This document shows, piece after piece, positions 11,656-34,353 of a stretch of DNA of 64,000 nucleotides. How positions within the stretch are numbered: position 1 is the first letter of the stretch; every line of letters starts with the position of its first letter. Source of the stretch: Eledone cirrhosa (Eukaryota); contig OZ024740.1 in NCBI GenBank assembly GCA_964016885.1, positions 250,604,001 through 250,668,000 on the forward strand, written 5' to 3'. The notes below the pieces were generated by a model. The model ran no database searches. It saw only the letters and a list, made by a program, of their open reading frames with translations, and was not told the origin of the DNA. The translations under genes and the position numbers were made by a program.

Positions 11656-12612
11656 TCTTTTTACATTTCTCCGATGGTTATAAACCCCACTATCAGGCTA
11701 GAAATTTCTTTAGTCTAAAATACGGTGAAAGCTTATAATTTCTAATTTCTAATTTCAAACTCGCGCACCGTTTCAAAAACATACTTACATGTTTACGTTT
11801 ATAATTTGCTTGTTTAATATATATATATATATATATATATATATATATATATATATATATATATATATATATATATATATATATATATATATATACATAT
11901 ATATATACATATATATACACACACACATATATATATATATATATATATATATACACATATATATACATATATATATACATATATATACACACACAAATAT
12001 ATATATATATATATATACACATATATATATATATATATATATATATATATATATTTAAAAGAATAGAGGTGTAACACACAAGTTATGATATATTGGTATA
12101 TATATATATATATATTTTTACATATATATATATATATACATATATATATATGTAGAAGAAGTTAGTAAGCCCGTGGGTACTAAGTACCCCTGGAAATACA
12201 TAGGTTGTCTATGATTTAAGGTTGTTCTATGGTATCAATTTGACATACCAGAACTATAATATTAATATAAGCAGAACAAGCAAAATTCAACCAATAATAT
12301 TATAGTTCTGGTATGTCAAATTGATACCATAGAACAACCTTAAATCATAGACAACCTATGTATTTCCAGGGGTACTTAGTACCCATGGGCTTACTAACTT
12401 CTTCTATCACCCTCCATTTGTTGAGAACAATCACGTTGATTCTATTTAGCTGCTATTTTTAGTAACGAAATAGACAACACGTCTATGTTTTTCCCGCTTT
12501 AACCTCGGGTAGTTCACGTACAGGTCATTTTTCGGCCTTTTGGATCTGTGCTAGCTGGCAGATAACAATATATTTTATCGTTCCTGGGTCTTTAGCCCTA
12601 GGAAAGGAAAAT

Positions 12613-12694
12613 GCTTCTCTGATGAGCCTTGATTTTCCATTAGAAATCCATTGGGTCTCTGGTGTTTTACAAGGCGAAACCGATCGGTAAGAGC
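12613..12694 (+). ncRNA. Type-I hammerhead ribozyme
   Basis: CTGATGA, P2 GCCTTG...CAAGGC, GAAA, P3 palindrome ACCGATCGGT, GTA, P1 TCT/AGA plus GC/GC. Confidence 0.85.
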
Positions 12695-13093
12695 CATATG
12701 AATAGGTAAATATTTAAATTATATTTTTTAATTTATTTTAAAAAATTGGTTGAATTTTGCTTGTTCTGCTTATATTAATATTATAGTTCTGGTATGTCAA
12801 ATTGATACCATAGAACAACCTTAAATCATAGACAACCTATGTATTTCCAGGGGTACTTAGTACCCACGGGCTTACTAACTTCTTCTATCACCCTCCATTT
12901 GTTGAGAACAATCACGTTGATTCTATTTAGCTGCTATTTTTAGTAACGAAATAGACAACACGTCTATGTTTTTCCCGCTTTAACCTCGGGTAGTTCACGT
13001 ACAGGTCATTTTTCGGCCTTTTGGATCTGTGCTAGCTGGCAGATAACAATATATTTTATCGTTCCTGGGTCTTTAGCCCTAGGAAAGGAAAAT

Positions 13094-13175
13094 GCTTCTC
13101 TGATGAGCCTTGATTTTCCATTAGAAATCCATTGGGTCTCTGGTGTTTTACAAGGCGAAACCGATCGGTAAGAGC
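13094..13175 (+). ncRNA. Type-I hammerhead ribozyme (second unit)
   Basis: Identical to 12613-12694. Confidence 0.85.
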
Positions 13176-13665
13176 CATATGAATAGGTAAATATTTAAAT
13201 TATATTTTTTAATTTATTTTAAAAAATTGGTTGAATTTTGCTTGTTCTGCTTATATATATATATATATATATATGTATATATATGTATATATATATATAT
13301 ATATATATATATATATATATATATATATATATATATATATATATATATATATATATGTATACCACAACCCCACTCTCAAGAGCGTGAAACTAATAAACCT
13401 TTGTTCGTACTGCCTTTCTGTTTTGTTCCCGTTCAATATTTTACTATATATACATATATATACATACATATATATATATATATATATATATATATATATA
13501 TATATATATATATATATATATATATATATATACATATATATATATATATATATATGTATATATATATATATATATGTATATATATATATGTGTATATATA
13601 TGTATATATATATATATATATACGATATTAAACAAATGGAAACTATATTTATAAAACCATATTTA

Positions 13666-13727
13666 TTTCATTATACATATTTCAGGGATACCATATTAAA
13701 AATATGGCATGCCTTCTTCAGATAAAA
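13666..13727 (-). ncRNA. Type-I hammerhead ribozyme (same family as 26330)
   Basis: Minus strand TTTTAT-CTGAAGA-AGG...CCT-GAAA-TATGTA-TA-ATGAAA. Confidence 0.7.
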
Positions 13728-30924: not shown

Positions 30925-31008
30925 ACCTTTACCGATCGGTTTCGAATCCCAAAAATAAAACGTAGGCCATACGGCCCTCGTTGCAAAGAGAGATTCTCGT
31001 CAGAAGGT
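30925..31008 (-). ncRNA. Type-I hammerhead ribozyme, unit 2
   Basis: Identical to unit 1. Confidence 0.88.
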
Positions 31009-31407
31009 TCTTTTCATTCAAAGAATATAAAATTCCTGAATTTAAATCACAAACTAGCGCTATCAAAGACTGTTCCTGGGATGAGAGTGGATGATGTAGA
31101 ACAGGTTTATCAAGGGCCGTAGTAAAGATAGAGGCAAAAGGAGGTAGGTCAAACTAGCCACCGCTGTTATCAGCAGCAGTCGGAATGACCCGGTTTGTTC
31201 TCAACGTTTGTGGAGGTAGTAGTAATATGAAATACGTCCTTTCACGCACAAGGCGCCAAGGTACGCATGTATTGTCCAACCAAGTGCCAGTGTGGTTCAA
31301 TGGCGGGTTAATAAATTAACGAGCCAGAACAAATATAAACAAGGTTTAGTAAATAATGAAAAAGTTTCAAAATAAATTTTAAAAAATTGACTTTACCCAC
31401 TATAGTT

Positions 31408-31491
31408 ACCTTTACCGATCGGTTTCGAATCCCAAAAATAAAACGTAGGCCATACGGCCCTCGTTGCAAAGAGAGATTCTCGTCAGAAGGT
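31408..31491 (-). ncRNA. Type-I hammerhead ribozyme, unit 3
   Basis: Identical to unit 1. Confidence 0.88.
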
Positions 31492-32170
31492 TCTTTTCAT
31501 TCAAAGAATATAAAATTCCTGAATTTAAATCACAAACTAGCGCTATCAAAGACTGTTCCTGGGATGAGAGTGGATGATGTAGAACAGGTTTATCAAGGGC
31601 CGTAGTAAAGATAGAGGCAAAAGGAGGTAGGTCAAACTAGCCACCGCTGTTATCAGCAGCAGTCGGAATGACCCGGTTTGTTCTCAACGTTTGTGGAGGT
31701 AGTAGTAATATGAAATACGTCCTTTCACGCACAAGGCGCCAAGGTACGCATGTATTGTCCAACCAAGTGCCAGTGTGGTTCAATGGCGGGTTAATAAATT
31801 AACTTTTCAATCAACTTTTTCATTATTTACTAAACCTTGTTTATATTTGTTCTGGCTCGTTAATTTATTAACCCGCCATTGAACCACACTGGCACTTGGT
31901 TGGACAATACATGCGTACCTTGGCGCCTTGTGCGTGAAAGGACGTATTTCATATTACTACTACCTCCACAAACGTTGAGAACAAACCGGGTCATTCCGAC
32001 TGCTGCTGATAACAGCGGTGGCTAGTTTGACCTACCTCCTTTTGCCTCTATCTTTACTACGGCCCTTGATAAACCTGTTCTACATCATCCACTCTCATCC
32101 CAGGAACAGTCTTTGATAGCGCTAGTTTGTGATTTAAATTCAGGAATTTTATATTCTTTGAATGAAAAGA

Positions 32171-32254
32171 ACCTTCTGACGAGAATCTCTCTTTGCAACG
32201 AGGGCCGTATGGCCTACGTTTTATTTTTGGGATTCGAAACCGATCGGTAAAGGT
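32171..32254 (+). ncRNA. Type-I hammerhead ribozyme, inverted unit
   Basis: ACCTT CTGACGA GAATCTC...AACG ag GGCC gtat GGCC ta CGTT...GGGATTC GAAA CCGATCGG TA AAGGT. Confidence 0.88.
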
Positions 32255-34353
32255 AACTATAGTGGGTAAAGTCAATTTTTTAAAATTTATTTTGAAACTT
32301 TTTCATTATTTACTAAACCTTGTTTATATTTGTTCTGGCTCGTTAATTTATTAACCCGCCATTGAACCACACTGGCACTTGGTTGGACAATACATGCGTA
32401 CCTTGGCGCCTTGTGCGTGAAAGGACGTATTTCATATATATATATATATATATATACAGAGGTATCCACTGTAAGTTGTGGGGTCTGTTCTGCATGAAGA
32501 ACTCGATGTAATCCATATGTTGAAAATGTTGTAGGTTAAGATAAATCTCAGAAAACAATAAAACATTAAAAGGAAAACAGAGTCATGATATAAGTTAAAA
32601 CAATGAAGTAAAAAATCAAGTCATTAGAGATATTCTTCACTGCTTTGTGATCGTTTCTAGATGGTGATAATACATTGTATCTATACTCAGTTATTGATCT
32701 ATTAAGTTTACAAACTCTCAGATAGAGAGAATATTTACTTACATGCATATCACCAGCTGTTTTCAAAAGCAATAATAATTTTATTCAATAATAATTTTAC
32801 TCAGAATTAGTAGCATGTTAGTATCATGTCCTTATTTGGAGGTGGTTGAAGAACTAACGAATCAAATTGTTTTTTTCATATGGTGTTAAGATGAAAAGTA
32901 ATATACTTTAGTTGAGGTCATGACCCTTTGAAAGGAATGGTTGAAGCGTGTTAGTAGAAATGGCATAAAAATCTATTAGGAGGGAAGGGGATTGTCAAAC
33001 TGATAGTTGAATGTATCTTGTATAGTGAATTTAAAAGGAATGTCAAAATAAATGGTGATTAGTGTTGTATTGGGTTTTAAGGTGAATATAAATTAATGTT
33101 ATGGCTAGGAAAGATAGTATATTAAAAGATGAAAATTATAATAAGATAATGAGATATAGTAATGCGATAATATACAACTTAACCAACACAATATAGTACG
33201 GTGTGGTAAATTGCACTTAGTATAATATAACATATTATACGCTCTAAAATATTACTAAGTGTGTTTATGCATAAACAACCAAACTCAGATAAGTACATGT
33301 TGGCATAGTTAAAACACATACATTTCATAGTCTACAAAGTGCATATATCCACACTATATATAGAGAGAGGTACAGTTATACTGATATCTAACCAAAATAT
33401 ACATACGTACAAATAGATGCAAACGTAAATACACATCCACACGCATGCATATAATCATATATATATATATATATATATATATATCCATACATTTCTATAT
33501 CCACACATACACATCTATACCCCCATATATATATACACATATACACATATATATATACACACACACATATATATATATATATGCACACACACACACTCAT
33601 ACATACATACATATATACATATACATACATATACACACATACATACATACATACATATATACATACACATACACACACACACACACACATATATATATAT
33701 ATATATATATATATATAACTTGTGTGAGTATATGTACACTCCTCTTACATGTGCACATACTCATATATAAACATTCATATACCTATACTCACATATACAC
33801 ACACACATATATATACATATATATATATATATATATATATATATATATATATATATATATATATATATATATATATATATATATATATATATATATATAT
33901 ATATACATACATATACACATTTACATATATATATATATATATATATACACATACATATACATATATATATATATACATACACATACACACATACATATAC
34001 AAGCATATACATATATACACATATACACATACATAAACATATATACATATATATATATATATATATATATATATATATATATATATATATATATATACAC
34101 ACACACAAATATATACACACATAAATATATTTCCATATCATACATAGATGTATATTTTTACTCATGCAATTACGGGTGGTTGTGTATCTTGTTGCCTTTA
34201 GTCATTAACGCATAAATCTAAGGAAGCTAAAACATTAAAAGGCAAAAATAAGCATGAAAGCATATAATTAGGGGAAAGAGGTACTAATAAATGTTATTCT
34301 ATACGAAATTGTAGTGAGTTGCTATTTAGAATATTTAATTAGGTTTATAGTAT

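Follow-up and report, generated by a model that had tools for sequence, protein, structure and literature searches.

Two homologous hammerhead retrozyme families in Eledone cirrhosa and the hairpin-marked ends that they have in common with Hydra-clade Penelope-like elements

The described systems closest to the sequences analysed here are the retrozymes and the Penelope-like elements (PLEs). As described in the available portions of PMC7229834, animal retrozymes without long terminal repeats (non-LTR retrozymes) have units of approximately 170–400 nt, retrozymes in other animals occur as circular RNAs that RtcB ligates in vitro, and most of these circles, some mussel ones excepted, have no self-pairing block of the ribozyme, which must then be silenced by other means. 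Li, Clavereau and Pollet reported that retrozymes co-occur with PLEs and proposed that they are non-autonomous derivatives that hijack PLE enzymes (bioRxiv 10.64898/2026.07.22.740005). The Hydra clade of PLEs is characterized by RWK, DKT and CxCX5C motifs and targets (TA)n, and the PLE tail often stands at one end only (Craig et al. 2021, available portions of PMC8557442). In Poseidon PAc, the tail is bounded by two internal start sites of the reverse transcriptase (RT), the RNA downstream of the start is needed, both DNA strands are cut and extended, and a dimer is predicted (Frangieh et al. 2024, PMC11167929). Here, we analyse two repeat families, A and B, in a 64-kb window (64,000 nucleotides, contig OZ024740.1) of the 3.0-Gb Eledone cirrhosa assembly GCA_964016885.1 (G000), in which (TA)n tracts are abundant. 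We propose, with a probability of roughly 0.6, that A and B are homologous, non-coding families of hammerhead retrozyme whose two 3′ ends are fixed and lie in (TA)n, and that a Hydra-clade RT-endonuclease starting at two hairpin-marked sites likely copies and inserts them.

The two hammerhead tandem-repeat families reported in the initial annotation were recovered by Tandem Repeats Finder as a 481-bp array at 12295-13256 (family A, 2.0 copies) and a 483-bp array at 30366-31803 (family B, 3.0 copies, minus strand), each with an inverted arm. The A tandem arm, with two 481-bp units (12295..13256, plus strand), ends in a TA tract at a site designated E1, and its exact end is fixed only to within a few bases, as the unit has an AT-rich terminus. 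The A inverted arm (12153..12295, minus strand; unit positions 70-212, numbered from the G of GAAACC) ends in a TA tract at a second site, E2. Likewise, the B tandem arm, with three 483-bp units (30366..31803, minus strand), ends at E1, and the B inverted arm, with 1.3 units (31813..32437, plus strand), ends at E2, both in TA tracts; the two B arms are joined 5′-to-5′ across approximately 10 bases. The ends sit within (TA)n tracts, so a target-site duplication cannot be read there.

A motif and pairing search found the hammerhead core, P1, P2 and P3 in every A and B unit of the window. As the initial annotation had noted, both units have a type I core (CTGANGA, long P2, GAAA) and an identical P3 (GAAACCGATCGGTAA). 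The A ribozymes (P1, CUGAUGA, long P2, GAAA, palindromic P3) lie at 12613..12694 and 13094-13175 on the plus strand, with a predicted cut after 12689. Those of B lie at 31408-31491, 30925-31008 and 30442-30525 on the minus strand and, in the inverted arm, at 32171..32254 on the plus strand, with a predicted cut after 32249. A search of the window with Rfam returned no hammerhead or other true family, only hairpin-driven microRNA matches below threshold; the Rfam models probably miss the A and B hammerheads owing to the long P2. The longest ATG open reading frame (ORF) in eight retrozyme representatives encodes 27-79 amino acids, indicating that the elements are non-coding. The GC content is 0.36 in the 30-32 kb bin. 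A and B arrays are dispersed over many contigs, and young subfamilies are 99-100% identical.

A and B were initially proposed to be old homologues with a conserved non-ribozyme domain. Our analysis supports this proposal, with structural constraint on that domain, through shuffles, profiles and covarying helices. Outside the ribozyme, the two units (389 vs 388 nt) outscored dinucleotide shuffles under each of the six scoring schemes (z 3.97-5.85), with 0-3 of 1000 shuffles reaching the real score; the raw identity by itself is weak (55% vs 52.5% for shuffled pairs). Profiles built without the ribozyme and without the target clade gave a best cross-clade copy at a genome-scale E-value of 7e-7. 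All five copies of lineage E, a relative of B, fell below 2e-5, six B copies ranged from 0.0013 to 11, and the reverse direction gave 9e-5 to 4800 over 14 copies; both window copies are among the weakest matches (11 and 810).

Genome searches placed A and B in a superfamily with nine or more lineages (A, Ao, B, C, D, E, F, G and H) with units of 481 to approximately 680 bp. The CCTCCA-n-GTTGAGAACAA pattern gave 496 genome matches against 1 for the reversed control, and all 30 fetched loci were A or B. Lineages C (524-528 bp) and D (485-486 bp) were reached with P3 relaxed to a palindrome-compatible pattern (1250 matches vs 43 controls), older A copies (Ao) and lineage E (485-488 bp) were found in flanks, and F (542 bp), G (563 bp) and H (~680 bp) were found by profile scans of flanking DNA. 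Identity is 69-90% within A/Ao/C/D, 79-80% between B and E, and 52-64% between these two clades. The range of unit length speaks against the proposed selection on RNA size. Similarly, selection on the P3 sequence is not borne out, as its letters vary among relatives, with palindromy kept in most lineages and imperfect in E. The nine ordered motifs initially listed all occur in both A and B, but two of them are not generally conserved. GCTAG was rejected as a conserved motif: its columns in A are not homologous to those in B, and lineages C, D and E carry altered versions, so its sharing is probably due to chance. GCTGCT is lost in lineage G, yet the hairpin of that lineage, described below, remains.

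More diverged members of the superfamily were seen at L092:149-877 (period near 590 bp), L100:17-155, L347:714-1029, L142/L079, L015:2073-2500 and L351:490-1040. The patterns GAAACCGATCGGTAAY, ..RHH, ..GTAB and GAAACCHNNNGGTAA.. gave mostly A/B variants or background, with one cut-site chimera only. One sequencing run labelled as a different organism (X4) holds contigs of the A clade (D-like variants) and of B, compared with 12295-13256 and 30400-31500; thus, both clades occur beyond the species label of this assembly. In run X6, a single B-like contig of 241 nt was present at depth 2, and X7 and X8 gave only short AT-rich matches.

The ends of these elements are fixed and paired. Among the mapped arms of A, Ao, B, C and D, 167 of 180 terminate at E1 (104) or E2 (63), and 157 of these 167 run into TA repeats; approximately five of the 180 are possibly counted twice (58 pairs and 59 single arms make 175), and the mapped loci are the top search matches, possibly with segmental duplicates among them, rather than a random sample. 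Lineages E, F, G and H also end at fixed E1 and E2 sites. The distance from E1 to E2 is approximately 100-120 nt in all nine lineages, though their units differ by 200 nt. The 92 inverted insertions (58 in A/Ao/B/C/D; 3 in E, classed by eye; 15 in F after L368 was moved to G; 1 in G; 15 in H) comprise 75 with E1+E2, one with E2+E2, none with E1+E1 and 16 with an unclassed end. The E1+E2 combination was therefore found in 75 of the 76 fully classed inverted insertions (binomial p 1e-21). Single arms end mostly at E1 (47/59). Arms are tandem and inverted and 5′-truncated, with an optional tail, and most have fewer than three units; with their fixed ends, they are unlike a classical satellite with long local arrays. 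The RT-coding families are also two-ended, with tails of 66 nt and ~90 nt, and their two ends match the PLE tail traced to two internal RT start sites (PMC11167929).

Two of the motifs common to A and B explain what marks these ends: GTTCTGG and CCTCCA..GTTGAG are two copies of the same bulged hairpin, YUC-helix-UH-GAR, with an inner helix of any length and a two-base 3′ bulge starting with U, and they lie 2-11 nt past E1 and E2, respectively. In A, the hairpins are at 12786..12816 (after E1; GUUC-UGG...CCA-UA-GAAC) and 12892..12907 (after E2; CCUC-CAUUUG-UU-GAGA), both on the plus strand. In B, they are at 31849..31884 (after E1; GUUC-UGG...CCA-UU-GAAC) and 31963..31980 (after E2), also on the plus strand; the latter, in the young window copy, keeps one inner pair, whereas two remain in B variants with CACTAATG. 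This hairpin also follows both ends of an autonomous element in the window, a full-length Hydra-clade PLE (57952..61705, minus strand) with a pseudo-LTR (pLTR), an RT-GIY-YIG frame (ATG at 61153 to 59024, minus strand, four in-frame stops), a 3′ untranslated region (UTR) and an E2 end, whose inverted arm (61706-63799) terminates at E1. Its hairpins lie on the minus strand at 61236..61281 (after E1; GCUC...UC-GAGC) and, just before its ATG, at 61176..61191 (after E2; GCUC-CCUCGG-UU-GAGC). A second RT-coding Hydra-like family (~6.1-10.8 kb) carries the hairpin after E1 at 10627..10698 on the plus strand. The motif shared by A and B is found in these RT-coding elements as a structure, but not as alignable sequence.

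A fixed rule, requiring YTC at an offset of 2-11 from the end and two inner pairs, was passed at 15 of 16 ends of representatives of A-G, the young B E2 failing, and at all three tested ends of the RT-coding window elements. In lineage H, whose pairs were taken directly from the sequences as MAFFT misaligned it in the short hairpin alignment, E1 passed, and the one tested E2 copy, which carries a substitution, failed. The background was 151 of 5000 random positions (3%) and 3 of 140 shifted windows. In other families, 6 of 20 automatically collected recurrent ends passed (p 2e-5). No RT-coding sequence lies upstream of these six families in the examined loci; in five of them, one or more copies have a hammerhead-like core upstream, and the search key for the sixth matched no copy. 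The initial annotation had proposed an RT-recognition site among the shared motifs; these two hairpins stand exactly where such a site would be expected, and the RT may bind there. Since each hairpin lies beyond the end that it marks, it must act on a template extending past the start site. The E1 hairpin pattern was also searched in metagenome contigs (at least 120 matches) and viral contigs (20 matches), with no credible relative among the matches listed (best profile score 15 bits).

A further conserved segment, here termed the anti-ribozyme segment, lies approximately 190 nt before the cut site and is complementary across the cut junction in all clades (A, 12977..12989; B, 32050..32062; both plus strand). 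It is predicted to pair across the cut/ligation junction. In this junction helix, 94.3% of 300 cells pair, against 25-57% in slid controls, and 20 cells show a two-sided change, a number reached in 0 of 500 shuffles. The helix recurs at the same place, with wholly different letters, in F, G and H, lineages that were found afterwards; that of F is 16 bp with p above 0.5, and 0-4 of 40 shuffles were as strong. Folded as circles, all 25 units examined have a minimum 3-15 kcal/mol below the ribozyme-active form, and in 24 of them the junction-paired form is lower in energy than the active one. The matrix of cognate and noncognate duplexes is mixed: C and the B clade mostly favour their own segment, and the D segment is best with most junctions. 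As regards the ligation element proposed initially, the conserved anti-ribozyme segment is a candidate that could splint the ligation or block the ribozyme.

The body of the unit also retains a fold. In the alignment of 25 sequences, 82% of body-helix cells pair, against 35-48% in slid controls, and two-sided change is seen in 13 of 44 pairs, a count that 26 of 500 shuffles reached, with some helices misaligned between clades. Units folded individually have hairpins at matching places. Because of misaligned columns, RNAalifold retrieved the helices only partly from the automatic alignment.

From homology, fixed ends, the pairing of E1 with E2, the hairpin and the covarying segment complementary to the cut site, all of which are read directly from the DNA, we infer how the RNA is transcribed, cut and circularised, what binds it and which enzyme copies it, as follows. 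A tandem copy would be transcribed, and the hammerhead would cut the transcript into monomers. The anti-ribozyme segment would hold the cut ends for a host ligase and then prevent re-cutting of the circle. A pair of Hydra RT-endonuclease molecules would bind both hairpins and nick both strands of a (TA)n tract, with one complementary DNA (cDNA) primed at E1 and the other at E2. Each cDNA would be extended round the circle over a length that varies, from 0.1 to ~9 units. Finally, the two cDNAs would be joined head to head as an inverted insertion, or one would be lost, leaving a single arm. A broader proposal, which we place at even odds, is that Hydra-clade Penelope retrotransposition uses the YUC-helix-UH-GAR hairpin as its start-site code, present twice per RNA and read by a dimeric RT-endonuclease at one copy per DNA strand, which would explain both the tail and the inverted insertions. 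The retrozymes would then be a long-lived superfamily of viroid-like ribozyme circles with its own anti-ribozyme switch, which parasitises this code and has lost all other likeness to its hosts.

The same Hydra enzyme and two hairpin sites could act instead on an uncut linear multimer transcribed from an existing array, with the junction helix only keeping the RNA uncut and no circle formed. We regard this, the main rival, as unlikely. Arms do pass the cut site again and again, the longest mapped one having 7.4 units and one array containing nine copies of the motif; the anti-ribozyme segment would be transcribed before the ribozyme and could block it in a multimer too, and PAc uses unprocessed RNA in vitro (PMC11167929). 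However, copies within one insertion share variants, including private ones found in both arms (21 A and 14 B loci; at L071, 24 shared variants, 5 private), and the B copies in the window show no substitution differences across 483 positions. Near-identical units with private variants in both arms and arrays of 7-9 units fit one monomer read repeatedly, which is not a proof. Furthermore, the clades have retained the ribozyme core and helices P1-P3, and 5′ truncations are modestly in excess just after the cut site (16/127 vs 6.7 expected, in a window picked post hoc).

One locus, L067, also bears on this comparison, as it ends at the cut site, and on the proposed Hydra partner. In it, an A arm ending at E2 is joined to a stretch of 1.3 A units, which breaks off at the predicted cut site and runs, without an intervening TA tract, into a 5′-truncated Hydra RT-endonuclease copy ending at its own E1, although a later deletion could mimic such a chimera. 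Hydra copies at L017 and L156 were rejected as chimeras; TA tracts lie between them and the retrozyme, and they are therefore nested insertions.

According to another explanation, the conserved blocks are DNA-level signals, such as an endonuclease recognition site or internal promoter, and the fixed ends are made when a DNA intermediate is processed, not where the RT starts. The Penelope endonuclease of D. virilis required tail DNA for cleavage (cited in the available portion of PMC11167929), Craig et al. attribute tails to endonuclease-mediated resolution (available portions of PMC8557442), and the outer pairs of the E1 hairpin are invariant in lineages A-E, as a DNA signal might be. In contrast, the stems are maintained through compensatory and G-U changes on one strand (UGG/CCA to UGC/GCA; GUUC/GAAC to GCUC/GAGC), the hairpin is missing from the (TA)n targets and is positioned beyond each inserted end, and the ends of the PAc tail match RT start sites in vitro (PMC11167929). 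We therefore consider the DNA-level explanation improbable. That A and B are decayed satellites of one old pLTR, amplified at the DNA level with shared blocks left over from ancestry, fits the near-baseline identity between clades, but is very improbable given copies on many contigs, fixed ends in TA tracts, 99-100% identical young subfamilies and structure conserved where sequence is not, and is already largely refuted by the end statistics.

Several observations weigh against copying of a retrozyme circle by a Hydra-clade enzyme. In the junction helix, two-sided change affects 4 of 12 pairs, a number within the range of the shuffles (113/500), and pair counts are inflated by relatedness. The energy of the junction duplex in single sequences is usually within the shuffled range (3-78 of 100 shuffles in A-E; 128 of 200 in H), and the best pairing site is elsewhere in 3 of 15 units and in the H-like relative L351. 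The hairpin rule was written after candidate ends had been seen, and 14 of 20 other families fail it, including a mutated copy of the window family and the partner family of L067, whose hairpin has a one-base bulge. The L067 chimera is a single case among 13 unclassed ends, with a junction fixed only within ~6 nt. The PAc hammerhead is dispensable in vitro (PMC11167929). No RNA run occurs among the sequencing runs listed as containing the sequence. Finally, blastn and profile searches, which covered part of the PLE families of the genome, found no alignable homology between A-H and the Hydra UTRs of the window or 30 loci of the L067 partner. The link between retrozyme and autonomous element is thus structural and local, and the partner can be named only by clade.

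The surroundings of A and B contain numerous fragments of RT and GIY-YIG frames. The Hydra-clade element at 57952-61705 encodes DKT, RWK-like RWR and CxCX5C motifs; it serves as a comparison element and may be the mobiliser of A and B, a role for which it is only a candidate. Its hammerhead core at 61318-61358 (minus strand) is the variant CAGAAGA, not CTGANGA, and the hammerhead copies in both of its 3′ UTRs have lost part of P2. An inverted pair of Hydra-like RT-endonuclease copies at 6104-10782, with a variant ribozyme core (CTTGAGAA) and palindromic P3, has one arm ending at E1 and the other with a ~165-nt tail. A search with Pfam did not recognise the Hydra-like ORFs; its sole RVT_1 match was a different element at 3.4-5.0 kb; there, within 2917-4964 (minus strand), a LINE-type RT frame (E 9e-24) is followed by a C-terminal frame, which we take to resemble a restriction-like endonuclease. 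Fragments of another RT/GIY-YIG element at 38371-40990 (minus strand) are presumably Neptune-like, and a relative at L390 carries the start hairpin at its end.

Other hammerhead elements and repeats are also present. Minimal type I hammerheads (TATTTTATCTGANGA...GAAATAT) occur in many short elements, often as inverted pairs in TA tracts, at 13721 (minus strand), 25917, 26157 (minus), 26336, 51675 (minus), 51809, 52372 (minus) and 57394; one family of these has the start hairpin as well. Another hammerhead family (TTTCATTCTGANGA...GAAACC.TGGTAAATGGAAT), at 23489 (minus), 28894, 49816 (minus), 50766 (minus) and 51434, has its ends in TA tracts, and the start hairpin also seems to be present in its tail. 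The long inverted repeat around a TA tract at 17579-17752, which gave the top spurious microRNA matches, is possibly a short inverted insertion of another family. Tandem repeats of 37 bp (5.4 copies, 53569-53767) and 84 bp (2 copies, 54386-54554) were found, the latter within the 3′ region of a Hydra-like frame. Elsewhere in the genome, various retrozyme lineages and Hydra copies often adjoin in one TA tract (L012, L099, L135, L140, L146, L368 and L143), which makes TA tracts insertion hot spots.

The retrozyme class, PLE tails and inverted PLE copies are already known, and A and B, initially regarded as a candidate for an undescribed system, fit the non-LTR retrozymes (available portions of PMC7229834; bioRxiv 10.64898/2026.07.22.740005). 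A literature search, supplements aside and with subscription journals sparsely covered, found no description of a start hairpin common to retrozymes and autonomous PLEs, of the E1/E2 arm rule or of a conserved animal anti-ribozyme helix. The enzyme that moves animal retrozymes and the formation of PLE tails and inverted copies are posed as open questions in the available portions of PMC7229834, PMC8557442 and PMC11167929. Our results offer a candidate RT-recognition signal of 16-70 nt common to the parasite and the autonomous element, a near-absolute rule (75/76) that ties two start sites to two DNA strands, and a candidate explanation for how an animal retrozyme circle escapes self-cutting. 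If the proposal is true, a small hairpin could be used to place the start of a telomerase-related RT at a selected internal position of an RNA.

Like the non-LTR retrozymes, A and B have one type I hammerhead per tandem unit and are non-coding, low in GC and dispersed, from monomer to multimer. Compared with the available account of these elements (PMC7229834), the units of A-H are longer (481-680 bp), a ribozyme-blocking segment is conserved across clades, and a conserved start-site domain and fixed paired ends are features that this account does not describe. The unit range of 51-972 bp given by Li, Clavereau and Pollet covers A-H; many Xenopus retrozymes match a pLTR directly, whereas here the connection consists of a structural signal and integration anatomy (bioRxiv 10.64898/2026.07.22.740005). 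The proposed blocking of the ribozyme by a complementary segment in the circle recalls plant LTR retrozymes and hammerhead viroids. Both, as covered by the same available portions of PMC7229834, have a type III hammerhead, and the plant LTR retrozymes also LTRs with a PBS (primer-binding site) and a PPT (polypurine tract), and Gypsy mobilisation; in contrast, A and B have head-to-tail units of type I topology with no LTR pair seen (PBS and PPT were not searched). In common with Hydra-clade PLEs (available portions of PMC8557442), they show (TA)n insertion, a hammerhead, a tandem and inverted 5′-truncated structure and a one-end tail, but A-H encode no protein. The tails here are ~100-120 nt (66-90 nt in the two RT-coding families), against 30-40 bp for Hydra PLEs, and a shared start-site hairpin is unreported for the Hydra clade in those portions. 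In comparison with Poseidon PAc (PMC11167929), each start site here has its own copy of the same bulged hairpin, and the two sites map to opposite arms.

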